DNA from: a candidate division WWE3 bacterium
GTDB lineage: Bacteria; Patescibacteriota; WWE3; UBA101185; UBA10185
DNA length: 64,000 nt
NCBI GenBank assembly: GCA_016182565.1
Contig: JACPGI010000005.1
Coordinates: forward strand, 11,005-75,004
Direction: 5' to 3'
Shown piece by piece: positions 7,832-41,224 of the stretch. Numbering within the stretch: the stretch's first letter is position 1; each line of letters begins with the position of its first letter. The notes under the pieces were generated by a model, which did no database searches, was not told where the DNA came from, and worked only from the letters and a program-made list of their open reading frames with translations. The translations under genes were made by a program, and so were the position numbers.

Positions 7832-7906
7832 GGCCTGGTCGCCAAGTGGTAAGGCAAGGGTCTGCAAAACCCTTACACGTGGGTTCGATTCCCACCCAGG
7901 CCTCCA
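7832..7906 (+). tRNA. tRNA-Cys (anticodon GCA)
   Basis: 75-nt cloverleaf: acceptor GGCCTGG/CCAGGCC, anticodon stem AGGGT/ACCCT with loop CTGCAAA, T-arm GTGGGTTCGATTCCCAC, encoded CCA. Confidence 0.85.
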
Positions 7907-12588: not shown

Positions 12589-15500
12589 ATGCCCGTAAAA
12601 GAACAAATAATAAAAAAGTCTGTCCTAACTCCAACCTTTTTAATAGCAGGTGGTGCTGGATTTATAGGTTCTCATCTTGCTGAAAAACTCCTTGAGCAAC
12701 AAGCTAGAGTTATCGTACTTGATAATTTTAAAACCGGAAAAGATATATACGTAACATCTCTTTTAACAAATCCTAGATTTGCGGTTTTTGATGTAGATAT
12801 CAACCAAGGTCTACCAAAAAATATTCAAAGTGTAGATTACATAATTCATCTAGCAAGTGTGGAGTCTTATTTGTACAGTAGAGACCAAGTAAATTTAGAT
12901 TCACTTCTCACAAATGCACTTGGAACAAAAAATTTATTAGACTTAGCACAGTCATCTGAGGCTAAGTTTTTACTCGTATCATCAATTGATGTATATGAGG
13001 GGCTTATTTCTCCGGTTAGTTTAGAGCAGTACTTTGGCCAAACTCCCGAGGAAGAAAAAAGATATTCACTGAGTGAAGCAAAAAGATTTGCGGAAGCTTT
13101 GGTCTGGGAGTTTTTCAAGAAAAATAAAACTGATGTGAGAATTGTCAGAATCCCCGAAGTTTATGGACCTAGAATGAGTCTTGGAGCAAGTGGCTCCATG
13201 GGGATGTTTCTTAGAGAGGTAATGGAAAATAAGGATATTACTATCTACGGCGAGGGTACTGAAAAAGAATACTACCTGTACATAACAGATGTTATAGGGG
13301 GATTTGTTAAAGCACTTTTTAATAAAGACACGAAAGGTCAGATATTTACAATTGCCCCAGAAGAGCCTTCCACAAGTCTTGAAGTTGCCTATCTTACAAA
13401 AAGCCTTGCTAACGCGGAAGTTAAGGTTGTATTTAATGAAGCTCCCGGAAAAATGTTTAGTAAAACTGCCAAAATACCAGATCGTGGAAATATAAGTGTT
13501 TTAAAGTGGGCACCAAAAGTAGAACTTAAGGAGGGTATTAAAAACACCATGATGTGGTTTGGATATGAACCAAATGAACACTCATTTAAACCTGCAAAAC
13601 TTATCGAAGATAAAATGATGCAAAAAGACATGAAGACTGGGCGAAGGATAGCCTCAATATTTGGGGTTTCACAGGAAGATATAGATACAAGTGGTGTTAT
13701 AAAGCCTTTAGGAAGTCTTAATTTCGCACGAAATATAACCCCAGTGCTAGCAACTGCAAAAATTACAAACGACATCAAAGTAAAACTTGCACCTATAAAA
13801 AAAGAAGAAACCACCTCAATCTGGGATTTCAAAAATGAAGGGTTAGGCTTATACAAAAATCTTATGCAAGAAAAGGAGTTACTTCCCCCAAAGACTATCA
13901 ACGATAGGTTGTTACAAAAACCTAGAGATATTCTTAAAAAAATAAGATTTATTGGGGTGAAAGATGAAATCCCTGCCGTAAGACCCCCAATTCAAATATC
14001 ACCTGCAAATCTGCCTGGATCTGAAATCAGTCAATCTGAAAAAAATTTGTTAGCAGCAAAGCCTTGGAATTTTACTGATGCTAGTGCTAAACGAAAAAAA
14101 ATGATTTTAATTTCTGGAGTGGGAGTTTTATCAGCACTTGTCGTATTTACATGTATCCCACTACTCCAGACATATTTCTATACTAAATCTGGGATGAAAG
14201 CGCTTCAAAGCTCAGCTAATTACCTAATGCAACTTGATTCATCCAGCGCAAAAAATTCCTCAAACGCAGCATTTCAAAACTTCTACAAAGCCCAAAGAGC
14301 TATAGAAAAAGATAGATGGCTTTTTACCCTAGCAGGCAAAAAAGATTTACACACAACAACTTCCAGTTTACTTAGTTCAGCAAGTTATTTCTCAAAAGGA
14401 ACTTACAATATAGCAAAAGGATCTCAGCCTTTTACGGAAATTTGGGAAATTATAAAACCAAACACCCAGACGCAATTTAATAAAGACGCGTTTACTGAGG
14501 CACAAATAAACTTCGATGAGGCAAAAAATAATATTCAAAGAGCACAAGGAGCGTTTAAAAATGTAAACGAGATACTTATTCCAGCAAGCCAAAAAACGAA
14601 TCTTGAAACTTACAAAAATGCCTTAAATTTGATCTCTTCAAACATAGATACGGTTTCTCTTCTTGCAACAGAAGTACCAAATCTACTTGGGGCTAAGGAT
14701 ACCCCAAAAAGATACATGGTGCTTTTTCAAAATTCCAATGAGATTAGACCCACAGGCGGATTTATTGGTTCATATGCGATTGTGGAGTTTAAAGACGGCA
14801 AAATCCAAAATCTTACAATTGATGATATTTACAATCCGGATGGCCAAATCGATGTTAGAAATATACAAGTAGCACCGCCTGCTACACTCGGCAAACTTTT
14901 GGATGAGAAAAAACTTTATCTTCGAAATGCAAACTGGGATCCTGACTTTGGTAAGACTTCCGAAACCATAAAAGATCTGTACTTTAGAGTAACTGATAAA
15001 ACACTCGATGGGGTGATTGCTCTTGATTTAAACTTTGCCCAAAATTTATTAAGAGTCACAGGGCCAGTTTATCTAACTGCCTTTAGTGAAGAAATTTCGG
15101 CAGATAATATGTATGAGAGAGCACAATTTCATAGTGAATTTAATTATAAAGATGGCTCGGATCAAAAAAGAGCTTTTCTTACTATCCTGGGAAGTAAACT
15201 CCTCGAAAGTATTTTTGCCTTACCAAACACAAAAATTCCGGAACTTGCAAAAGAAATTGACACAGCACTTACAGAAAAGCATCTATTACTTAATATTCAA
15301 AACAGTGCTTTTGGAGCTGAGTTACAAAAAAGATTCTGGGATGGAAGTGTGGTAAAAGTTGAGCCAAGTGCTGCCGACTATCTGTATGTAGTGAATGCCA
15401 ATGTGGGTGGAACAAAAGCCAATTATTTTGTAAAAAACGATATGCAGTACAACGTGTCTTCAAAAACAAGGGATGGAGTTTTAAGAGCTGAGCTTAAACT

Positions 15501-15951
15501 TACCTACAATCACACAGGCACGAGTATGGCTTGGCCGGGAGGAACAGGTGCTTCTATACAAACTATCAATACGACTGGAGAAGAAGCCAGTATCGATATT
15601 CAAAAAGAAATAACTATAGATAAGGTAGGAAACTATGTATCTTTTGAAAAACTAATTGAGGTACAACCTACTCAAAAGGTAATACTTACTATCACCTATG
15701 ACATACCACAAAACCTAGCTATCACAAATGAACACAAAGAGTACAAGCTCTTCTGGCAAAAACAGGGCGGTACTACAGATGACAGTTTTACTTTCAAGTT
15801 TGAGCCTCCTTTTGGTACAACAATACAAGAAACCTCTACTAAATACTCCCAAAGCTCAAATGGGATAAAAATGGAAAATTCTCAGGGCAGTACAACTGAA
15901 GTTCGGGGCAATTTAAACAGTGACTTCTGGTACTTGGCAAAACTTAAATAA
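12589..15951 (+). CDS. Fusion protein: N-terminal NAD-dependent sugar epimerase/dehydratase (SDR, Rossmann) domain, a TM helix, and an extracytoplasmic domain of about 600 aa with no recognised fold
   Basis: GGAGFIGSHLAEKLL glycine-rich NAD motif within about 320 aa of UDP-sugar epimerase/decarboxylase-like sequence. TM helix at about residue 505 (MILISGVGVLSALVVFTCIPLL). A long C-terminal domain follows, containing ...RPTGGFIGSYAIVEF.... Confidence 0.6.
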   Translation: MPVKEQIIKKSVLTPTFLIAGGAGFIGSHLAEKLLEQQARVIVLDNFKTGKDIYVTSLLTNPRFAVFDVDINQGLPKNIQSVDYIIHLASVESYLYSRDQVNLDSLLTNALGTKNLLDLAQSSEAKFLLVSSIDVYEGLISPVSLEQYFGQTPEEEKRYSLSEAKRFAEALVWEFFKKNKTDVRIVRIPEVYGPRMSLGASGSMGMFLREVMENKDITIYGEGTEKEYYLYITDVIGGFVKALFNKDTKGQIFTIAPEEPSTSLEVAYLTKSLANAEVKVVFNEAPGKMFSKTAKIPDRGNISVLKWAPKVELKEGIKNTMMWFGYEPNEHSFKPAKLIEDKMMQKDMKTGRRIASIFGVSQEDIDTSGVIKPLGSLNFARNITPVLATAKITNDIKVKLAPIKKEETTSIWDFKNEGLGLYKNLMQEKELLPPKTINDRLLQKPRDILKKIRFIGVKDEIPAVRPPIQISPANLPGSEISQSEKNLLAAKPWNFTDASAKRKKMILISGVGVLSALVVFTCIPLLQTYFYTKSGMKALQSSANYLMQLDSSSAKNSSNAAFQNFYKAQRAIEKDRWLFTLAGKKDLHTTTSSLLSSASYFSKGTYNIAKGSQPFTEIWEIIKPNTQTQFNKDAFTEAQINFDEAKNNIQRAQGAFKNVNEILIPASQKTNLETYKNALNLISSNIDTVSLLATEVPNLLGAKDTPKRYMVLFQNSNEIRPTGGFIGSYAIVEFKDGKIQNLTIDDIYNPDGQIDVRNIQVAPPATLGKLLDEKKLYLRNANWDPDFGKTSETIKDLYFRVTDKTLDGVIALDLNFAQNLLRVTGPVYLTAFSEEISADNMYERAQFHSEFNYKDGSDQKRAFLTILGSKLLESIFALPNTKIPELAKEIDTALTEKHLLLNIQNSAFGAELQKRFWDGSVVKVEPSAADYLYVVNANVGGTKANYFVKNDMQYNVSSKTRDGVLRAELKLTYNHTGTSMAWPGGTGASIQTINTTGEEASIDIQKEITIDKVGNYVSFEKLIEVQPTQKVILTITYDIPQNLAITNEHKEYKLFWQKQGGTTDDSFTFKFEPPFGTTIQETSTKYSQSSNGIKMENSQGSTTEVRGNLNSDFWYLAKLK

Positions 15952-16047
15952 ACACAGAAAGTCCCCCATTGACCGCGTCAAACCAATAAAGTACAATCAC
16001 TTCGCTTTGGGCGGTTATGGCATAAGTGAACAGTACCAAGATATAAA

Positions 16048-16431
16048 ATGCCAAGAAGTAAAATTAAAATGGTACAAATGATTGAAGATAAGCAAATTAA
16101 CGAGCAATTAGCAAAATCAAATTGCTACAAATGTGGGGAAAGTTTAAACGGCGCCAAAATGACAACCATTGGAAAGCTTCCGGCAGCCGTTATAGCCCAC
16201 ACAGTGTGCCCAAATTGCCAAGCAGAAAGCATTATTACTCTAACGCTTGCGGGATCAGGTATAATGCCCCTTATCTCAGATCTTGGCCCAAGTGAAATGC
16301 AAAAATTTGCAACAAATAAGCCAACATCGTATGATGACTTGTTTAAGTTGCACGATATAGTAAAAAAAGGAAAACTATGGAAATTATTGCAGAGAAGCGC
16401 ACCGCTCTCGGAAAACAAAATAAGAAACTAA
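16048..16431 (+). CDS. Hypothetical small zinc-ribbon protein (CxxC...CxxC); overlaps the rplY start by 55 nt
   Basis: CYKCGES...CPNCQAE cysteine pairs; weak support. Confidence 0.3.
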   Translation: MPRSKIKMVQMIEDKQINEQLAKSNCYKCGESLNGAKMTTIGKLPAAVIAHTVCPNCQAESIITLTLAGSGIMPLISDLGPSEMQKFATNKPTSYDDLFKLHDIVKKGKLWKLLQRSAPLSENKIRN

Positions 16432-17090
16432 GAAAAGATAGGAAAGTTCCTGGCGTAATCTACGGGAAAGGTATGGAATCTGTAAATGTTATGGTAGGCC
16501 TTCTTGACCTTGTTAAGACATTTAAAGGGTCTGGGGAGTCTACCTTAGTTGACGTGTTGTTTGATGGCAAGAAAGAAAAGGTCCTTGTCACTGAAGTACA
16601 AGTTCACCCAGTAACGGGCAATCCGATTCACGCAAGCTTTCACAAAGTAAACTTAAAAGAAAAAATTAAAGCAAATGTGCCTGTGGTTGCTATAAACGAA
16701 GAGTTAAATGCCTTTGTTAAAAGCGGCGAGGGTATGATTTTGTCTTTGATAAACGAAATCGAAGTAGAGGCTTTACCTGCAAACTTACCACACAACTTTG
16801 AAGTAGATGTAAAAGATTTGAAACTTAATGAGGGCATCACAGTAGGACAGTTAAACTTTGATAGAACAAAGGTTGAAATTGTTGATTTGGAAGATGATGA
16901 GCTGGTTGTAAAACTTGATAGTGCAAAGATGGCTGAAGAAGTAGAAGAGGTCGTAGCCAGTGAAGAGGAATTGGTGGCAGGTGTTGAAGCAACCAAAGAG
17001 AAGAAGGAAGAAGATAGTGAAGAAAGTAAAGATGGTGAAAATAAGGTAAGTGATAATAAGAGTGGAAAAGATAAGAGTGAGAAGAAATAG
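16377..17090 (+). CDS. rplY: 50S ribosomal protein L25, general stress protein Ctc form, with an acidic/lysine-rich C-terminal tail
   Basis: MEIIAEKRTALGKQNKKLRKDRKVPGVIYGKG... matches the L25/Ctc N-terminal domain; C-terminal EEVEEVVASEEEL...KDKSEKK extension. Confidence 0.85.
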   Translation: MEIIAEKRTALGKQNKKLRKDRKVPGVIYGKGMESVNVMVGLLDLVKTFKGSGESTLVDVLFDGKKEKVLVTEVQVHPVTGNPIHASFHKVNLKEKIKANVPVVAINEELNAFVKSGEGMILSLINEIEVEALPANLPHNFEVDVKDLKLNEGITVGQLNFDRTKVEIVDLEDDELVVKLDSAKMAEEVEEVVASEEELVAGVEATKEKKEEDSEESKDGENKVSDNKSGKDKSEKK

Positions 17091-17169
17091 TCAGGGTTGT
17101 AAATAAGCTTTTAAACATTTCGCGGAAAATTTCACGTTTAAACAAAATTAAAAAGTCTTTTTGTAGAAA

Positions 17170-17200
17170 CCCCGACAAGTACAATATCGGGGCTTCTTGG
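17170..17200. terminator. Hairpin between convergent rplY (+) and the higher-GC island gene (-); possible bidirectional terminator
   Basis: CCCCGA-N11-TCGGGG followed by CTTCTTGGTT. Confidence 0.4.
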
Positions 17201-17230
17201 TTGAAAATTACTGGTGTCAGATGGTCTGGG

Positions 17231-18031
17231 TCAGGCGACGCCGAAAAGTTTCGACAATGTCCCATTCGCAAGCAATATGAACACCACCACCACGACGACC
17301 ATAAATCCAATAGGGCCAAATATGGCTTTTGACCAGGCAGGGGCTTCATGCATTGCAGTGAGTCCAAGCGCAAGTTTGATGTCGTTTTTCTGCACAGTTT
17401 CCGCGTGCTCAATCAACCGCATCTGCACATCTTTTGCATTATCAAGGGCGGTCGTGGAAACCTGTTCCAGAGCGGCAATTGATTGAAGCTGGACTTCGAT
17501 ATCTTGTTGATGTTGCAATTCCTGGTACGCCAACTGCATCGCAAGAACCAGGTCAGTCCCTTCAAGCCGGCGCATCTGCACAGATAGGGATGCCATAACA
17601 GCTTCACGCGTTGTCCCCTTCACATCGAGAAAGGGCGTTTGGCCGGCAACTTGTTTCGCAATTAAATCTGAAAGGATCACAAGTTGAGCCTCAGCAACAC
17701 CGCCCGTGGGATCATTTGCGGTGAGACTCATCAAAGATGGCGAAACTGAAATTATGTCGCTGGATGGTAACCAAATAATGGCTTCGCTTGGATCAACCAT
17801 GGTTATAGCGCCGTTACCATCGCCACTCAACGCCACGTTGATCTTGGTAACACCTGGAAAGGCGTCACCGATCGAAGTCAGAATTTGTTCCTCAGTAAGG
17901 TCTATACCACCGCCAATTGCGACAGTGGGACCGGTGGGTGCATCGGTACCATCAGTATTCCACATGAATGCCGCGGCAATTGCAATCACAACGATTGCCA
18001 AACCAATCAAAATAGAATTTCGTGCTTTCAT
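17231..18031 (-). CDS. Hypothetical bitopic membrane/secreted protein encoded in a higher-GC island
   Basis: 266-aa ORF with an N-terminal signal anchor (ILIGLAIVVIAIAAAF) and a C-terminal TM (GFMVVVVVVFILL). Codon usage is rich in GCC/CTG/GGC, unlike the rest of the window. Confidence 0.55.
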   Translation of the reverse strand: MKARNSILIGLAIVVIAIAAAFMWNTDGTDAPTGPTVAIGGGIDLTEEQILTSIGDAFPGVTKINVALSGDGNGAITMVDPSEAIIWLPSSDIISVSPSLMSLTANDPTGGVAEAQLVILSDLIAKQVAGQTPFLDVKGTTREAVMASLSVQMRRLEGTDLVLAMQLAYQELQHQQDIEVQLQSIAALEQVSTTALDNAKDVQMRLIEHAETVQKNDIKLALGLTAMHEAPAWSKAIFGPIGFMVVVVVVFILLANGTLSKLFGVA

Positions 18032-18237
18032 CTTTTCTCCTTTTCCCTATCCTTAGCTAGAAATTAGCCAGCAGGAAAGAGTCTATGTTATAGCTTGAAT
18101 TAGTTGGTTGAGAATTGGTGTTGGGGAGAGTTTAGTACAAGTGCATTTTGAAGTCAAATAAACTTTTTGTCATAGAGATATAAGAGGTCGATGTCAAGAA
18201 GATAAGACATCGACCAATTTTAGTTATCACTTACAAA

Positions 18238-20025
18238 TCATGACCCAGTAAAGGCGCTTAAAATACTCAGGGCGAGTGGTAAAAGCGCTCCAGAGGTCAG
18301 TGCGGCTGTTCGCACAAAGTCATATCCACGTTCCAAGCCTCTACCTTGACCCCCATTCAAGAATCCGGCGATAAAGGCAAAGGGCAGCACCAGACTGAGG
18401 GTTACCCATAGGGTCTGATTTACACCTGGGGCCAGGAATAAAGCGAGAAGCAGAATCACAATCACTGCTACCCAACCCAAACCGTAAGTAATCCAATCGG
18501 CATATTTAAGCATCTTTTCAGAGTCGTAATGCTTAAATGTGGCGTGGCGACGTCTCGTTTCCTGAAAGTCGAAGAATAAGATCGGAACCACAGTAACGAG
18601 CGCGGCAATCGGCAAACCGAGAAGCCCAACCAGCGTTTTGCTTGTAGGGCCAAATAGGTAATTTACCACGTATACTGCCATGATGTTGTTACCCCAAGAC
18701 CACTCCGTAGAATGTAGAAACGGATTAGCCAGAATGGCAAGATAACGATCTCTGTCTGGTACAGGCATTTGGGTGAAGGCTTTCAGGTTAAATTTGGCTT
18801 CGGATAACAAATTAACAATAGAGCCAACACCTAAAGTCAACACAAAATTTATAACCATTGGTGCCCAGATCATCAACGGGCTCGTGGCGCTTTTGTTATC
18901 TATTAAGACACGGACAATCAGGGCAATAAAGATAAAAAACCCAGAGAGTCCAGCAACCCAGTGGCGTGTAAACAACTCGCCCAAAGCAACCAGCAAAACA
19001 ACCCCAATCAAAAACATTTCGAGCTTTCCTAGTGGCTGATCTTTAGACATCAGGCCGCCGGCGCCAAGCTTATAGGTCAGGGAGTTCAATTTATCGATTA
19101 AGGGTTTGACATTCTCGTCCACCACACCTGCTACCGGGGCAACAGTTTGCCCTGCTACAACCCAATCAAAATAAGCTTGGGGAGCAAAACAAACATCTCC
19201 GGTTCCCTGATCCCAATAGGCATACACTTGTTGCTCGTTGTAGTCACGTCCCACTACTTTAGTTACCACATACAGGTTGGACTGTTTTAATTCCCCACAA
19301 TCTGCAGATTCCATGTCAATACTTCCAAATCCCTGATTTCCTATGTAACTGGGGGCAGGTTGAAGCTGATATACCACAGGCAAACCATCCGCAGTACGCT
19401 CCACAGGAGGTCTGTTCAATGGGCTGGCAGAATTGCCAGTCAACCCACTACTGACTGGGGAGTCACCGGGTAATAAATTAAGCAATGTTGGGCCAAAATA
19501 CAACCCTGCCAATAGCAGTACAACCGCAAGAAGTGAAAAACCAACAATTTGAGCGGTACGCCACATGCTTGCCTTTTTCTGCCCTGCATCAAATGCACTT
19601 GCTTCAGCGCTTTGTTTCTGCTTTTTCTCTTTACTTGCACTACGATAAGCCGCCATTGCCTCAGCCTGTGCATCACTAATAGAAACGCCAGCAAGCTTTG
19701 CAAGTTCCGGAGGCATATCAGTAAGATCATCTGCTTCAAGGTCTGGAAAAACCTCCTGAAGCTGGGAAACAGCATCAGCAAATTTTGTACCTTTTCCGTT
19801 CCACTCCATAAGAATCTGGAGGGGATCGAAAGCTGGTTTGTCAGCAGTTGCAGGTTTCACGGGCAATTTGCTAAATGCCCCCAACAGATAATGGGTAACA
19901 GCCGCAGTCAAATCCTTAAGACGCGGGTCACCTTTTGCGTTTGCAATCCACCTTTCCTCTATCTGAGCCAACGTTGCTAAAAACAATGTAGCCCGTTGCT
20001 CATCAGTGTATACAGTTGTAGCCAT
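18238..20025 (-). CDS. Hypothetical polytopic membrane protein encoded in a higher-GC island
   Basis: 595-aa ORF with a soluble N-terminal domain of about 150 aa, one TM, an extracytoplasmic segment of about 150 aa, then 8 or more TM helices. GC looks roughly 50 percent. Confidence 0.55.
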   Translation of the reverse strand: MATTVYTDEQRATLFLATLAQIEERWIANAKGDPRLKDLTAAVTHYLLGAFSKLPVKPATADKPAFDPLQILMEWNGKGTKFADAVSQLQEVFPDLEADDLTDMPPELAKLAGVSISDAQAEAMAAYRSASKEKKQKQSAEASAFDAGQKKASMWRTAQIVGFSLLAVVLLLAGLYFGPTLLNLLPGDSPVSSGLTGNSASPLNRPPVERTADGLPVVYQLQPAPSYIGNQGFGSIDMESADCGELKQSNLYVVTKVVGRDYNEQQVYAYWDQGTGDVCFAPQAYFDWVVAGQTVAPVAGVVDENVKPLIDKLNSLTYKLGAGGLMSKDQPLGKLEMFLIGVVLLVALGELFTRHWVAGLSGFFIFIALIVRVLIDNKSATSPLMIWAPMVINFVLTLGVGSIVNLLSEAKFNLKAFTQMPVPDRDRYLAILANPFLHSTEWSWGNNIMAVYVVNYLFGPTSKTLVGLLGLPIAALVTVVPILFFDFQETRRRHATFKHYDSEKMLKYADWITYGLGWVAVIVILLLALFLAPGVNQTLWVTLSLVLPFAFIAGFLNGGQGRGLERGYDFVRTAALTSGALLPLALSILSAFTGS

Positions 20026-36166: not shown

Positions 36167-37285
36167 ATGATTTTTACCTGTCTACAAGAAAATCTGTCCA
36201 AGGGATTATCCACTGTAGGCAAGGCTGTGTCTTTAAAAAGTCCACTCCCTGTATTATCAAATGTATTAGTGGTAGCTCAGGACGGTCGCTTGAAGCTAAC
36301 CGCCTCTAATATGGAAACAAGTATTACTTTATACGTTGGGGCATCAGTGGAAAAAGATGGGGCTATTACTATTCCTGCAAAGCTTTTTGGTGAGTTCATT
36401 TCAAATTTATCCCCCAGTACAATTCGCGGTGAATTAAAGGAAAATATTCTTCATATAAGTACCGAGAAGACCAAATCTAAGTTTAATGGGGTTGATGCCA
36501 GCAATTATCCTGCCCTTCCAGAGATCAAAGATCAAACTTTGGCTATTGAGGTAGACCCAAAGGAATTTGCCCATGCTGTGATGTCAGTTGCTTTTTCAGC
36601 AGCTTCTGATGAAACCAGACCTGTGTTAACCGGAGTTTTAGTCCACCTCGAGGGTGGTGTCTTAACTCTAGCGACAGCAGATGGTTACAGACTATCTGAA
36701 ACATCAATAAAGCTTAAAAAAACTCGTACTTCCGAGTTTAACGTAATTATCCCAGCAAAAACTTTGGTTGAAGTTGCCCGTATCTTTGGTAGTAGTGGGG
36801 ACAAGCTTAAAATTGTGATGAATAAAGACGATAATTTGGCTTTATTTGAAGCTGAGGGTACAACAGTATCCACAAGGATAATTGATGGTAATTTCCCAGA
36901 TTACAAAAAACTAATTCCAGCTGAAGCCATACATAAGGCTGAGTTTTATTCTCAGGACTTACTCGAAGCTGTCAAACTTACAAATGTTTTTGCAAAAGGC
37001 TCAGAGACTCACAGCCCAATAACAATTCATATAAATCCTGAGGGATATATAAAACTTACTTCTGCATCCAGTGAGTCCGGTGAAAATCACACTCAAATTG
37101 ATGCTTCTGTTGAAGGTGAAGTCTTGGATGTGGTTTTTAATTCAAAGTTTTTACTTGATTTTTTGAACAACATAAAAGCCGAGAGGGTAGTTTTTTCTTC
37201 CAACGGTCAGCTTACACCAGGTGTTGTTAAGGGAGCCGAAACAGAGGGGTATATCCACTTGATAATGCCAATAAGAGGGAGTTAA
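36167..37285 (+). CDS. dnaN: DNA polymerase III beta sliding clamp
   Basis: MIFTCLQENLSKGLSTVGKAV... and a three-domain length of 372 aa, in an origin-proximal position. Confidence 0.9.
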   Translation: MIFTCLQENLSKGLSTVGKAVSLKSPLPVLSNVLVVAQDGRLKLTASNMETSITLYVGASVEKDGAITIPAKLFGEFISNLSPSTIRGELKENILHISTEKTKSKFNGVDASNYPALPEIKDQTLAIEVDPKEFAHAVMSVAFSAASDETRPVLTGVLVHLEGGVLTLATADGYRLSETSIKLKKTRTSEFNVIIPAKTLVEVARIFGSSGDKLKIVMNKDDNLALFEAEGTTVSTRIIDGNFPDYKKLIPAEAIHKAEFYSQDLLEAVKLTNVFAKGSETHSPITIHINPEGYIKLTSASSESGENHTQIDASVEGEVLDVVFNSKFLLDFLNNIKAERVVFSSNGQLTPGVVKGAETEGYIHLIMPIRGS

Positions 37286-37330: not shown

Positions 37331-37801
37331 ATGTATTTTGCTCCACTGATCCCAGTTTTAATTACATTTATTATGTTTGAGCTGATACTAAAGCTTTTGA
37401 TAAAGGATAAGTTTTTTCCACGAGATGAGTTATTGGTAGGTAGATATATAACCGACTTTTACTACTTACTATTATTTAATGTAGTTGTTGTATTGATGTT
37501 TATTTTACTTGGCTATCAGTGGCTTCCAGAATATATCTTTTCAGAAATTTACCATGCAGTATTTATAATTTTTAGTTATATTTTAATTACTGTTAGCCTA
37601 TTAAACCTAAAACATGGTGTAGTCCCAAGCTTTACTAAGGAGTTTGCTAGAAAGTTGGCTTTTAATCAGGGACACAGTTTAAGTAAGCAGAACCTTATAA
37701 GTGGCATAGAAATTAAATATGTTGGGGCTAAAGCGAAGGCGCTAAATCTCACAGCCATCATTTTTGGTGTGGTGGCAATTTTTCTAACCCTTAAACTTTA
37801 G
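37331..37801 (+). CDS. Hypothetical membrane protein
   Basis: 156-aa ORF with 4 TM helices. Confidence 0.35.
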   Translation: MYFAPLIPVLITFIMFELILKLLIKDKFFPRDELLVGRYITDFYYLLLFNVVVVLMFILLGYQWLPEYIFSEIYHAVFIIFSYILITVSLLNLKHGVVPSFTKEFARKLAFNQGHSLSKQNLISGIEIKYVGAKAKALNLTAIIFGVVAIFLTLKL

Positions 37802-37880: not shown

Positions 37881-40469
37881 CTATTGGTTTTTCTGGTCTT
37901 GATTGTTTGCTAAGGGTATTGTTCCTTGATCGATTTTAGTAGGTATTCCCTGGGATAAATCTTGTTTGATACCTCCCGGCATCAAAATCTTAGGACCACT
38001 ATTGTTGGTGTTTGCATTCTGTCTTTGCTGTCCTGGTATTACTGAGCTGTTAGGTCCAGTATTTAAGTTTTGTTGCCTTGGGGTTTGATAGCCATCCACC
38101 AGTTGATTAGGTGCAATTCCTTGACCAAACGGGGTTTTTGCCACGACGGTATTTTGTGGTTTTTTAACTTCAGCATTTGTTGGTATATGTGGTACTGGAA
38201 TTTTTGGCACGTGTTGTTGAGGTGTAGGTTGTCTAGATTGTTGTTGCTCAATGCTATTTTGTTGCGGTTGATTAGATTGGTTTAACTGATTTTGTTTAGG
38301 CTGACCTACCATAGTAGTATTTATTGGAGTTCTTTGTTGAGGGTGATTCTGTGGTGAAGAGAAAGCTTTACCTTGTGAATTAGAAACTTGAGCATTAGGT
38401 GCCGTGGCTACAGGTATTTGTGGTTGGTTTTGTGCCTGTGTTTGTAATGGTGGTTGTGGTGTCACCGGTTTTGGTGTTGGCATGGGAGTATTAAACTTTG
38501 GTGCCTCATACCTTGGTGCTACTCTTTGCGGAGTTTCTTCTTCAGATATGTCATCATTTGGGTTTTTTGGTTCAGGGATTTTAGCATAACTTTGAGTGTC
38601 AACTATCTCGAATGGTTTATAAGAAGCCCGTTGTTCTTCCACAAGTTTTCTTTGGTTTCTTTCTTCTTTCATTTTTAGTATTTCCTCTGGATTTGTTGTA
38701 ATTAGCTTGTATTCCTCTTCTGAAGCAATTACTTTAATGGCAACGTGATTTGCACCAGCAAAAAACAAACCCTCACCCCTGTCAGCAGATAATAGCAATC
38801 TTTTTTCGCCTTCGGATAGATAGAAAACTTCTGCAATTTTATCTATAGCTGATGGGTGTTGTTTCAAAAGTATTTGAATAGAGGAGTTACTCACAATCGC
38901 GTGGCCATAATCAGACTTTAAAAAGTCGTCCACGTCTTGAGTAATTGTAGTAAGACCCAAATAATATTTTCTGGCTCTTTTTGCGATACCAAACAAAAAC
39001 TGGGCGCTGTCGTTGTTGGACATGAGGTACCAAGCCTCTTCCACAATTAATATTCGTTTACGCAAATCCTTTCTAATAGTTGTCCATACAAAGTCCAAGA
39101 TCATATAGAAGGCAATTGGTCTTAGAGCGTCTTCCAAATGTTTTGTAGAGAAAACAGTCATATCCGCCGTAAGGTTTATATTAGATTGTGAGTCAAATAT
39201 TCCAGTCATAGAACCACGGATAAATTTCTCTAACCTTTCTGCCATACCCCGTGCTTCTACTTCAGCACCACCAAGCAGTACTTTATATAAATCTTCCATA
39301 ACTGGAGGTTCTTGTGAACTTTGGGTATCAGGGTCGGGAGTAATACCTTTTAATCTATAAGTTTCAATCAAGGCTCTATCAAGAATGGCATCTTCTGTAG
39401 GGGAAAGTGTTCCCATCATAAGCCTTAAAAGTGTGTGCAAAGATAAAAGTTTTTGACCAAGTTCATTTTGACCTTCAACAGCAATGCCAGATAAGTCAAA
39501 AGGATTAATCTTTGCCGGAGAGCTTGGTGAGAAGTTTATGTAGTTACCACCCAAAGCTTCACAGACCGGTTTATACTCTTCTTCTGGGTCGATGATAAGA
39601 ACTTGTGTTCCAAAGATGATAGAACGCAAGGCTTCAAGTTTAACAACAAAAGATTTACCAGCTCCGGATTTAGCAAAAACTACGGTGTTAGCGTTTTCCA
39701 AAGAAAACCTATCAAAAATGATAAGAGAACCGTTGTGTTTATTAACTCCGTACATTATGCCTTCATCTGAAGTAAGGTCTGATGAGGTAAAAGGGAAAGT
39801 TGTTGCAAGACTTGTGGTATCCATGTTTCTTGTAATCAAAAGTTTATCCATTGCTGTGGGAACTGTGGATTGAAATGCTTGTTCCATTTGTAAAGTGGCT
39901 TTTTTGGAAATAAGAAGTAGGGATCCAAGTGTGCCTTCCAGTTTTTTAGATATGTTTTCAAGCTCTTCTAAAGTTTCAGCAGGTATAGTGATGTAAAAAG
40001 AAAATTGGAAAAACTTCTCGATACCCTTTACAAGCTGCTCTTGTAAAGTGTTTGCGTCTTCTAAAGCAGCAACTACTACTGGATCTGCAATTTTTCCCCT
40101 TTCAGCATCCCCCCTGACAGTAGCCTCAAGTTCTGTAATTTTTCTTTTTAAATCGTCAAGTACCCCTTGAGCTTTTACAGGATAATAAAACATTGAGATA
40201 TCAAGTGAGTGATCGAAGTTAATAATAGGTGCAAGCCAGTCAGCCCCTACAAACCTAGGATATCCTGACACAAAAAGTGTTCGAAAAAACATTCCCCCAA
40301 CCCGCATGTGATTAAAATCAACTTCAATTGCAGAAGGGGCAATAATGTCTCTTATATCAACCATTCCTCTTGCAATCACATCTCCGGCATTTTCCTTTGG
40401 TGCTTCTGGTGTAAGCTTTGGGTCTACTTTTGGTTTTTTATTAAATAATGTAAATTTTGGCATTGGCAT
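37881..40469 (-). CDS. virB4: Type IV secretion ATPase, VirB4/TraC/TrbE family, with a C-terminal Gln/Pro/Asn-rich low-complexity tail of about 280 aa
   Basis: Walker A VVFAKSGAGKSFVVK and Walker B/DEAW-like ILIVEEAWYLM; overall length and order match VirB4. The tail (approximately nt 37881-38720) reads ...PQPPLQTQAQNQPQIP...QSNQPQQNSIEQQQSRQP.... Confidence 0.8.
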   Translation of the reverse strand: MPMPKFTLFNKKPKVDPKLTPEAPKENAGDVIARGMVDIRDIIAPSAIEVDFNHMRVGGMFFRTLFVSGYPRFVGADWLAPIINFDHSLDISMFYYPVKAQGVLDDLKRKITELEATVRGDAERGKIADPVVVAALEDANTLQEQLVKGIEKFFQFSFYITIPAETLEELENISKKLEGTLGSLLLISKKATLQMEQAFQSTVPTAMDKLLITRNMDTTSLATTFPFTSSDLTSDEGIMYGVNKHNGSLIIFDRFSLENANTVVFAKSGAGKSFVVKLEALRSIIFGTQVLIIDPEEEYKPVCEALGGNYINFSPSSPAKINPFDLSGIAVEGQNELGQKLLSLHTLLRLMMGTLSPTEDAILDRALIETYRLKGITPDPDTQSSQEPPVMEDLYKVLLGGAEVEARGMAERLEKFIRGSMTGIFDSQSNINLTADMTVFSTKHLEDALRPIAFYMILDFVWTTIRKDLRKRILIVEEAWYLMSNNDSAQFLFGIAKRARKYYLGLTTITQDVDDFLKSDYGHAIVSNSSIQILLKQHPSAIDKIAEVFYLSEGEKRLLLSADRGEGLFFAGANHVAIKVIASEEEYKLITTNPEEILKMKEERNQRKLVEEQRASYKPFEIVDTQSYAKIPEPKNPNDDISEEETPQRVAPRYEAPKFNTPMPTPKPVTPQPPLQTQAQNQPQIPVATAPNAQVSNSQGKAFSSPQNHPQQRTPINTTMVGQPKQNQLNQSNQPQQNSIEQQQSRQPTPQQHVPKIPVPHIPTNAEVKKPQNTVVAKTPFGQGIAPNQLVDGYQTPRQQNLNTGPNSSVIPGQQRQNANTNNSGPKILMPGGIKQDLSQGIPTKIDQGTIPLANNQDQKNQ

Positions 40470-40519: not shown

Positions 40520-41224
40520 TTATTCTTCCAAGATTGCAGGTTCAACAATTGCTGTTCTATAGTCTCCAATATCAGTTCTTATTCTTTGTGCTTCTGCTGA
40601 TCCTGGGTTATATATTTCGAAAAGTAATTCTACTATTTCCTGAGTGGATAGTCTTTTAGCTTTTATACCAAGTCTTCCAAACTCCCCAACTACATGGTCC
40701 ACTTTTGGTAAAAGATCGGGTTTTGCTCTTTTTAGTGCAGACTCTGTATCCACTTTTACTCGTTTCGTGTGGGCTCCGAACATCCTACCCATCCAATCAA
40801 ACGGAGTAGATCCCTTTTCGTGAAATCCTGTACTTCCGGAAGGCACAATTACGTAAAACTTTTTTGATAAAACATCATTTACCTTCACCAAGTCTTGTAC
40901 AAACTTACGATATGATTGGATCTGTTTTTTTAAAAGCGGGTCACTTAAACCCTGCTCAACTTTCACTATTTTTGTGATGTAGTTTGAAATATCGACTCTT
41001 TTTGATCTAATTACAATTTGTATCGGATAAGTTATCGAGTTTAGAAGCATAGAAAAGGCGGCAATCAAAGCATCTTGCTCCATTTCAGAAAGAAGTGCAA
41101 AGTTTACAGCAGTTGTTGAAATAATTGCAGCTACCTCCCCTGTTTTTAGTATAATTAAGTCCTCTTTTATGTCCTCTACATCTAGATGTTCTTGTGTTGT
41201 TGATCTGATTTCATTTATTGGCAT
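40520..41224 (-). CDS. Hypothetical cytoplasmic protein in the T4SS-like operon
   Basis: 234-aa ORF directly upstream of virB4 and co-directional with it; no TM helix. Confidence 0.4.
   Translation of the reverse strand: MPINEIRSTTQEHLDVEDIKEDLIILKTGEVAAIISTTAVNFALLSEMEQDALIAAFSMLLNSITYPIQIVIRSKRVDISNYITKIVKVEQGLSDPLLKKQIQSYRKFVQDLVKVNDVLSKKFYVIVPSGSTGFHEKGSTPFDWMGRMFGAHTKRVKVDTESALKRAKPDLLPKVDHVVGEFGRLGIKAKRLSTQEIVELLFEIYNPGSAEAQRIRTDIGDYRTAIVEPAILEE

Follow-up and report, generated by a model that had tools for sequence, protein, structure and literature searches.

The 64,000 nucleotides analysed here (the window) come from a bacterium of candidate division WWE3 (Katanobacteria), within the Patescibacteria/CPR (GenBank assembly GCA_016182565.1, contig JACPGI010000005.1, positions 11,005 to 75,004 of the forward strand) and carry, next to origin-region genes, the virB4 gene of a type IV secretion system (T4SS). 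The folded ATPase core of its product is followed by a long, disordered C-terminal tail in which conserved short motifs are parted by hypervariable spacer, and this tail is our subject (Table 1). Judged by its sequence, the protein of 862 amino acids (aa) is the VirB4-type motor ATPase of a chromosomal, origin-proximal, Gram-positive-like Patescibacteria T4SS. It matches the NCBIfam model "VirB4-like conjugal transfer ATPase, CD1110 family" (NF045971) with 367.2 bits against an equivalog cutoff of 325, query residues 32-594 corresponding to model positions 180-752 of 752, and the model thus ends at aa 594. The Pfam domain P-loop_TraG spans aa 257-606, and aa 228-591 align (E 5e-53) with the C-terminal domain of VirB4 from Thermoanaerobacter pseudethanolicus (PDB 4ag5), the only solved homologous fold. 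Residues S268, G269, G271, K272 and S273 of Walker A are invariant in our alignment A1, as are E477, E478, A479 and W480 at and just after the Walker B-like ILIVEE (aa 473-478). Compared over 600 aa, the 120 closest homologues have core identities of 73-93%, and many alignment columns are invariant.

Table 1. Features of the virB4 locus, in positions of the window (aa numbers within features of VirB4 refer to the 862-aa protein; AF2, AlphaFold2)
Feature	Position	Strand	Basis
VirB4-like ATPase gene, 862 aa + stop	37881..40469	-	Open reading frame listing; P0001 100% identical; NCBIfam conju_CD1110
Folded ATPase core, aa 1-594	38688..40469	-	CD1110 model end; 4ag5 alignment
Walker A AKSGAGKS, aa 266-273	39651..39674	-	Read from sequence
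Walker B region RILIVEEAW, aa 472-480	39030..39056	-	Read from sequence
Last helix leaving core, aa 593-615, NPEEILKMKEERNQRKLVEEQRA	38625..38693	-	AF2 helix 594-614
Motif A, SYKPFEIVDTQSYAKIPEPKN, aa 616-636; clade consensus KPvYKPxERxDxxKYxT	38562..38624	-	Homologue tails
Predicted intrinsically disordered region, aa 633-862	37884..38573	-	AF2, charge-hydropathy
Hypervariable Q/P/N-rich spacer, aa 636-752	38214..38564	-	P0002 comparison, AF2
Subclade-conserved island B, KIPVPHIP...KKPQNTVVAKTPFGQGIAPNQLV, aa 756-791	38097..38204	-	P0002 and subclade comparison
Island C, GPKILMPGGIKQDLS, aa 825-839	37953..37997	-	P0002 comparison
Near-terminal motif T, DQGTIPL, aa 847-853; clade consensus G(T)I(S/T/D)L(G)	37911..37931	-	Homologue tails
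TrsD-like protein, 234 aa, free-standing homologue of VirB4 N-terminal domain	40520..41224	-	NCBIfam TrsD/TraD E 9e-10
PrgI/VirB3-like membrane protein, 597 aa	41273..43066	-	Pfam PrgI aa 17-95, E 3.7e-10
Four tandem VirB2-like pilin paralogues (129, 148, 107, 144 aa)	48726..50435	-	Pfam T4SS_pilin, NCBIfam Mbov_0395 pilin-like
dnaA	32598-34025	+	Origin-region gene
dnaN	36167-37285	+	Origin-region gene, convergent with virB4

The protein does not have the full-length CD1110 architecture, since the virB4 open reading frame (ORF) lacks the first ~180 positions of the model, its N-terminal domain. The TrsD-like protein encoded directly upstream matches positions 104-234 of a full-length VirB4 model, which indicates that the VirB4 N-terminal domain is encoded here as a separate protein. 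Such a split VirB4/TrsD arrangement is typical of Patescibacteria (PMC12102498). The synteny of the trsD-like gene and virB4 is kept in 40+ loci, and in L001, the locus of the closest relative, the equivalent of the trsD-like gene matches Pfam TraC-like.

The extension beyond the family model runs from aa 595 to aa 862 (~268 aa), and ~230 aa of it (633-862) are predicted to be disordered. The original prediction, made from the letters of this DNA, had described a disordered tail of about 280 aa on VirB4, rich in Gln, Pro, Asn and Thr. The tail is real, the peptides quoted for it are present and the composition is as described; its length comes down to an extension of ~265 aa, ~230 of them disordered (the interval assigned to it, 37881-38720, corresponds to aa 584-862 plus the stop codon). 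Over aa 601-862 the tail contains 16.4% Gln, 14.5% Pro, 9.9% Asn and 7.3% Thr, compared with 2.8% Gln, 4.5% Pro and 3.7% Asn in the core; ~18% of its residues are hydrophobic and 17% are charged. When the 55 non-overlapping ORFs of the window (19,383 aa) were scanned for polar low-complexity sequence, 239 of the 299 flagged residues fell in the tail, which was the only long stretch of this kind; such tails are therefore not a proteome-wide habit, at least in the window. The only other flagged stretch is T/S/G-rich and occupies aa 1053-1112 of a 1120-aa protein (12589-15951, plus strand), a fusion of an NAD-dependent epimerase/dehydratase domain with DUF4012. AF2, run with a 94-sequence alignment, gave aa 633-862 block-mean pLDDT (predicted local distance difference test) values of 30-44 with no helices or strands, and the core and helix 594-614 were folded. 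A homologue with a 66-aa tail was likewise left unstructured over its tail (pLDDT 30-44), and a charge-hydropathy calculation placed the query tail on the disordered side of the boundary, so that the disorder and low-complexity checks agree with what had been read from the letters.

We asked if the tail could be an artefact, an assembly error or frameshift fusing VirB4 to downstream sequence, a scenario that had been named as one that would undo the original prediction. An NCBI protein titled [quoted passage not shown] (P0001) is likewise 862 aa long and 100% identical, and the protein occurs on two public contigs. The nearest relative, P0002, comes from an independent metagenome contig of the Joint Genome Institute (JGI); it has 853 aa and a 93% identical core, its contig has the same arrangement of trsD-like gene, virB4 and convergent dnaN, and its tail aligns to the query tail over the whole length, with islands that are 64-100% conserved. 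Independent assemblies thus carry homologous tails in the same frame and the same gene order. The reading frame of the tail has 0 stops in 262 codons compared with 8-24 in the other five frames, 0 of 20,000 shuffles of the tail DNA stayed open, and the third-position GC content of the tail (0.24) is similar to that of the core (0.29). Opposite-strand and off-frame ORFs under the tail (61-74 aa) are ordinary shadows, no RNA genes or other features were found under the tail on either strand, and a scan for promoters and terminators at the virB4 3′ end gave nothing above chance. An artificial fusion is therefore negligible as an explanation. We conclude that the tail is genuine, coding and disordered, and that it is absent from the known fold and from the family models.

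The original prediction described the tail as either prion-like or linker-like. In the first sense it would gather T4SS ATPases into condensates or amyloid-like assemblies, as a prion-like or phase-separating domain. Gln and Asn together make up 26% of a long and disordered tail, and disordered Gly/Gln/Pro-rich linkers, such as that of SSB, drive condensation, which we counted in favour of this idea. The tail is nevertheless 14.5% Pro and 17% charged, and its maximum in an approximate PAPA-type score was -0.05, below a cutoff of ~0.05, with parameters and cutoff themselves approximate. Across the tails of the 120 closest homologues the Gln content varies from 2 to 29% and the Asn content from 0 to 17%, and Pro is more constant. 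We consider a prion or condensate function very unlikely, and of the two descriptions it is the linker that fits.

The tail was not featureless, a point beyond the original prediction: conserved short motifs are parted by hypervariable spacer. Motifs were counted in 111 unique tails and compared with composition-preserving shuffles. Because the patterns had been defined by eye on this same family, they were recounted in 16 species-representative tails outside the set. The last helix leaving the core has block-mean pLDDT values of 88 (aa 601-610) and 69 (aa 611-620), and its homologues conserve NPEE(I/L)LK(L/M)(R/K)EE. Directly after it, motif A, counted as Y[KRQ]P, was found in 81 of the 111 tails where 10 were expected and in 11 of 16 independent tails where 0.67 were expected; its Y617 is at least 90% conserved, its pLDDT is intermediate (56-69), and aa 601-640 are 64% identical to P0002 despite saturated synonymous sites. 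The spacer that follows is 28% identical to P0002 over aa 641-750, with 20 gapped positions, compared with 93% in the core, and has pLDDT values of 34-41 without secondary structure.

Identity to P0002 rises again to 72% over aa 751-790, which take in most of island B. Here the query and its subclade have (V/I)PHIP...KPQNTV (aa 756-775), the elements HIP...KPQNTV being common to P0002, P0004, P0008, P0013, P0014 and P0016, and a sister group has the related (Q/E)NTVP. HIP was found in 7 of the 111 tails (0.27 expected) and [QEGS][NT]TV in 14 (2.7 expected). Island C, seen in the query and P0002 only, has 13 of 15 residues identical in a segment that is otherwise 42% identical. Motif T lies at a median of 15 residues from the C-terminus, is often followed by ..QG.I..L(K/R), and was counted in 72 of 111 unique tails (3.8 expected) and 7 of 16 independent ones (0.17 expected). 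Many longer tails also contain an amphipathic motif M3, (M)PS.E(D/E)IL.SV, in 28 of 111 tails where 0.02 were expected and in 8 of 16 independent tails where 0 were expected; no copy of M3 is present in the query tail. The aligned tails show, at the level of sequence, a beads-on-a-string layout of helix and motif A, free Pro/Gln spacer, conserved islands and a near-terminal GxI(S/T)LG. By the identities to P0002 (core 93%, spacer 28%, islands 64-72% or more), the spacer appears to be free and the motifs appear to be constrained.

We found that the length and the sequence of the tail diverge far faster than the core. At core identities of at least 97%, the largest difference in tail length is 21 aa and the median tail identity is 69%; at 93-97% the corresponding values are 67 aa and 47%, and below 85% tail lengths differ by more than 200 aa with a median tail identity of ~20%. 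The tail had been suspected of being a region prone to expansion and contraction, which is borne out over evolutionary time (up to 67 aa at 93-97% core identity) and finds no counterpart in DNA repeats of the kind a slippage locus would need. Tandem Repeats Finder (TRF) gave 0 rows at a score of at least 30 in the virB4 gene, and a direct-repeat search gave only two short imperfect two-copy repeats, ~400 nt apart, so nothing points to a slippage-driven, phase-variable locus. A repeat-driven contingency locus was considered and rejected, as the variable region has no tandem or microsatellite repeats. Synonymous divergence (pS) from P0002 is ~0.8, which is saturated, and the single dN/dS value obtained, ~0.08 for one 40-codon island, is unreliable. 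The composition of the tail bears on selection in another way. Its Pro enrichment (14.5 compared with 4.5%) needs GC-rich CCN codons in a genome of 37% GC and so runs against the mutational AT bias, which argues for selection on composition.

Our first homologue survey, which yielded the 120 closest homologues, used a query that included the tail; it was therefore repeated with the core alone, against a representative library of 1.84 billion proteins and against one genome per GTDB species (55 loci found). All 120 closest homologues have tails, 39-344 aa long with a median of 131, nearly all Pro-rich and most Gln-rich. Species representatives of the WWE3 clade (72-83% core identity) have 17 tails of 69-300 aa, counting those that can be read to the stop codon without masked bases. 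In the same species-representative genomes the tails of Dojkabacteria measure 13-59 aa and those of Gracilibacteria and Peribacteria 1-12 aa. In the representative library, relatives at 55-79% identity without an N-terminal extension have tails of 236-279 aa, whereas at 33-52% identity the majority combine a fused N-terminal domain of 170-650 aa with a tail of no more than 3-60 aa. As far as these surveyed sequences go, the tail is atypical for VirB4 overall, as the original prediction had it, but is the rule within WWE3, beyond which only some neighbouring lineages have it. It had been allowed that the same tail might prove universal and annotated among VirB4 homologues; it is universal within the WWE3 clade only, and there it is unannotated and undescribed.

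Lineages at 56-63% identity have tails of 15-257 aa with another composition and other conserved motifs. In these sister lineages the tails are rich in K/E or in N, a conserved SLDRIVPN adjoins the core, and the end motif is (M)xYD(K/E/S)LFG(N/D)GIV or (Y)NSIVS (loci L025, L054, L030, L033-L037, L050 and L056; proteins P0123, P0136 and P0185). Their end motifs suggest parallel, lineage-specific motif sets. A search with the tail alone in a collection of 5.8 billion proteins gave 163 word-sharing candidates, none at E ≤ 0.001, so that either other proteins do not carry the tail as a mobile domain or their matches are hidden by compositional filtering. Two further observations came from the surveys. 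Some VirB4 relatives at 33-37% identity (P0184, P0208, P0212, P0214, P0218, P0226, P0236, P0237, P0240, P0245, P0248, P0260, P0262 and P0269) have, in place of a disordered tail, a hydrophobic (30-41%), apparently folded C-terminal domain of ~170-240 aa whose start recurs as "...L(S/T)..(E/Q)...L...G(F/Y)...". The C-terminus of VirB4 looks like a hotspot of such additions. Records of metagenome-assembled genomes with WWE3-like or Microgenomatia-like virB4 clusters are often titled "uncultured Candidatus Saccharibacteria", "Gammaproteobacteria" or "Pseudomonadales" bacterium (L002, L006, L009, L016-L023, L025, L026, L028, L029, L031 and L054), and the record-title taxonomy of such third-party assemblies looks unreliable.

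It could be argued that the tail is largely non-adaptive, a low-complexity accretion at the 3′ end (through stop-codon loss or slippage, for example) that is tolerated, with only the core-proximal residues mattering. Extreme turnover of length and sequence would be expected of such an accretion, and the tail-alone search without homologues, the related lineages that manage without a tail and the degenerate terminal motif of the query are consistent with it. Yet the tail is kept in every WWE3 representative with a readable 3′ end, despite small reduced genomes, and a motif at its far C-terminal end is held across spacers of 40-340 aa. The Pro/Gln enrichment opposes the mutational AT bias, there are no DNA repeats to drive slippage, and the sister lineages have conserved terminal motifs of their own, YD(K/E)LFGNGIV and NSIVS. 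On balance we think that neutral accretion is rather unlikely to account for the tail.

The tail may instead regulate or assemble the ATPase itself, its motifs binding the VirB4 core, a neighbouring protomer or the TrsD-like N-domain and thereby gating activity or stapling the hexamer. Such a role is plausible for motif A, which directly follows the last core helix and is predicted with intermediate pLDDT (56-69). Moreover, the split TrsD-like N-domain (N-extension ~0) is found exactly in tail-bearing lineages, the N-domain being fused, at 170-650 aa, in most relatives without a tail. This link is not strict, since the split-type proteins P0140, P0148, P0154 and P0168 have tails of at most 22 aa; in addition, the distal motifs stayed undocked in two monomer AF2 runs, and a spacer of 100-300 aa is unnecessary for contacts in cis. 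We regard self-regulation as improbable.

The neighbours of virB4 form a recognizable secretion cluster. On the minus strand the virB4 ORF is followed by the 234-aa protein, the 597-aa PrgI-family membrane protein and a 496-aa polytopic membrane protein, and further along lie a 1074-aa protein (weak CHAP match), four T4SS-pilin-like proteins and a SpoIID-domain protein. Of the VirB2-like pilin paralogues, one copy scored above the Pfam cutoff and three below it; pilins are unusual in Gram-positive-type T4SSs, yet the literature reports them for Patescibacteria. The plus-strand neighbours are an origin-region set of dnaA, rpmH, rnpA, yidD, yidC, jag and dnaN. The layout described for Patescibacteria T4SSs, with virB4, adjacent trsD, a PrgI/VirB3-like gene and VirB2-like pilins close to dnaA, was therefore found here, and in the same order in related loci. 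Between dnaN and the virB4 3′ end lies a 156-aa multi-transmembrane ORF (37331-37801, plus strand) with a weak DUF3870 match; because dnaN adjoins virB4 directly in L001, this ORF is either a recent insertion or spurious. A Walker A scan of the ORFs of the 64-kb window gave, besides VirB4, only DnaA, an ABC-type protein and two chance matches, and thus no second P-loop candidate.

The PrgI-like protein has two N-terminal transmembrane helices, then a long polar/coiled middle, and at its C-terminus (aa 513-571) a CarboxypepD_reg-like beta-sandwich that scores below the Pfam gathering score. Its gene is conserved upstream of trsD-virB4 in related loci. We regard the protein only as a candidate partner of the tail. 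Across related loci (L003-L056) its N- and C-terminal parts are conserved across lineages, and its middle is extended in WWE3, by ~250-300 aa relative to Dojkabacteria and to the shortest of the 56-63%-identity lineages: the span between the N- and C-terminal matches is ~440-730 aa in WWE3 and ~270-410 aa in those. Several loci at 59-62% core identity equal WWE3 in the length of this span.

We propose that the tail is a cytoplasmic entropic tether presenting docking motifs that hold partner proteins at the machine, and we give this reading slightly better than an even chance. VirB4 is a cytoplasmic ATPase, and from its family the tail is presumed to be cytoplasmic as well. VirB4 forms hexamers at the cytoplasmic face of the membrane, the C-terminal domains lying distal to it, and the tails would consequently point into the cytoplasm. 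A tether to the envelope, as once suggested for this tail, is unlikely: VirB4 is cytoplasmic, and the tail is strongly polar with no hydrophobic segment visible by eye, no membrane-segment or lipid-anchor predictor having been run. Each machine would then have at least six flexible, proline-stiffened arms, arranged as a brush. The spacer would serve as the entropic tether, needing only to stay long and unfolded, and this would explain its fast turnover of insertions and deletions. The conserved motifs would act as docking sites, capturing a partner and concentrating it at the channel entrance, and the candidate partner classes are another T4SS subunit, an adaptor or a substrate. Such arms might work as in the pairs TraD-TraM and DotL-adaptor, or as in the linker and C-terminal peptide of FtsZ.

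A number of results weigh against the docking tether. The AF2 monomers of the query and of the homologue with the 66-aa tail show no docking of tail motifs on the core, and no partner was named by monomer AF2, by the tail-alone search or by co-variation with the length of the PrgI-like protein. PrgI-like length and tail length are weakly correlated (rho 0.35, p 0.04, uncorrected for phylogeny), and within WWE3 there is no correlation. The cytoplasmic orientation of the tail rests on published VirB4 structures. The query itself has a weak motif T (GTIPL), with Pro at the S/T position and without the second half GxIxxL(K/R), and about a third of the clade tails fail simple regular expressions for motif A or T. 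The by-eye motif patterns were controlled only by composition-preserving shuffles and a small independent set, and the ratio of nonsynonymous to synonymous rates (dN/dS) is unobtainable, synonymous sites being saturated already in the comparison with the closest relative.

A bolder version of the docking tether makes the tail a multivalent capture arm, with VirB4 of WWE3 bacteria acting as receptor in place of a coupling protein; the KPxYKPxERxDxxKY, (Q/E)NTV and GxI(S/T)LG motifs would then recruit the cargo or adaptors that these epibionts exchange with their hosts. Patescibacteria T4SSs usually have no adjacent coupling protein or relaxase (PMC12102498, PMC10633639). With that and with no second P-loop in the window, a receptor role for VirB4 is conceivable as speculation, and we think it doubtful. 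If it were true, lineage motif sets (those of WWE3 compared with YDKLFGNGIV and NSIVS) would mark lineage-specific cargo or adaptor repertoires.

Few machines have been shown to be essential to Patescibacteria living as epibionts, and the T4SS is one of them (PMC10633639, PMC12102498), the demonstration coming from the one organism tested, Southlakia epibionticum, whose epibiotic growth requires it (Wang et al. 2023, PMC10633639). Its cargo and substrate choice in Patescibacteria are not known (PMC10633639, PMC12102498), and the tail is a concrete handle on them. Conserved tail peptides, of which stronger consensus versions exist (e.g. QGLISLGDDGKTKVSQLN), could be used as baits, computationally or in the laboratory, for proteins docking at the cytoplasmic entrance. 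The protein is also a natural minimal-genome example of a conserved core with a freely evolving linker and conserved short motifs. The interest would be minor if the tail proved to be merely tolerated low-complexity sequence, disordered tails as such being common.

Elsewhere in the window, GC content is 0.43-0.455 over positions 16000-20000 compared with ~0.36-0.38 in the rest. This stretch holds two minus-strand ORFs without a Pfam match (17231-18031, 266 aa; 18238-20025, 595 aa) and may be foreign DNA. A tmRNA gene (55845-56233, plus strand) with the tag peptide ADENAYIAQPALVGALA lies directly downstream of a smpB-like ORF (55018-55476), and four tRNA genes lie at 7832, 57686, 60281 and 63084.

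In the literature the machine and its ATPase are already known, and what appears to be undescribed is the lineage-specific, motif-bearing disordered arm. In the study of the chromosomal, MPF-FATA-like T4SS of Patescibacteria (Quinonero-Coronel et al. 2025, PMC12102498), "disordered", "tail", "extension" and "low complexity" do not occur anywhere in the text. The passages retrieved on Patescibacteria, disorder or C-terminal extensions from a 2025 FEMS review contain nothing about a VirB4 tail, none of the papers given by a full-text search for disordered VirB4 C-termini appears by title or abstract to be about such a tail, and a literature search found no papers on cryo-electron tomography of the Saccharibacteria T4SS.

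Compared with the CD1110 family and 4ag5, the protein has the same core, matched above the cutoff, the same Walker A and B motifs and PrgI/VirB3-like, TrsD-like and pilin-like neighbours; it differs in the ~265 extra disordered residues after the point where model and crystal structure end and in the N-domain split off as a TrsD-like protein. The locus resembles the published Patescibacteria T4SSs in being chromosomal and next to dnaA/dnaN, and in the TrsD adjoining VirB4, the PrgI-like protein and the several VirB2-like pilins. Within the 64-kb window no relaxase or coupling-protein candidate lies near it. It differs from them in the VirB4 tail, which Gracilibacteria, Peribacteria and Dojkabacteria either lack or have in a short form.

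Tails that recruit partners are known from other T4SS ATPases. The C-terminal tail of DotL binds adaptors. The F-plasmid coupling protein TraD has a flexible C-terminal tail whose last residues bind TraM (PMC7555446). The tail of WWE3 VirB4 shares with these the two marks of their type, a flexible C-terminal extension, predicted to be disordered and cytoplasmic, of an ATPase that forms T4SS hexamers, and a conserved motif at or near its end, which in TraD and DotL recruits the partner. However, TraD and DotL are VirD4-type coupling proteins with known partners, and they carry acidic or aromatic motifs that have no sequence relationship to those of VirB4; the resemblance is in how the tail may work and not one of homology.

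A similar design is found outside secretion. FtsZ has a variable linker and a conserved C-terminal peptide, and SSB has a disordered linker and an acidic tip. As in these, a conserved core is followed in VirB4 by a hypervariable disordered linker of constrained composition and by a short conserved peptide, which in FtsZ and SSB docks partners. The proteins and motifs are unrelated, however, and the VirB4 tail bears at least two or three motifs spread along its length rather than a single one at the tip.

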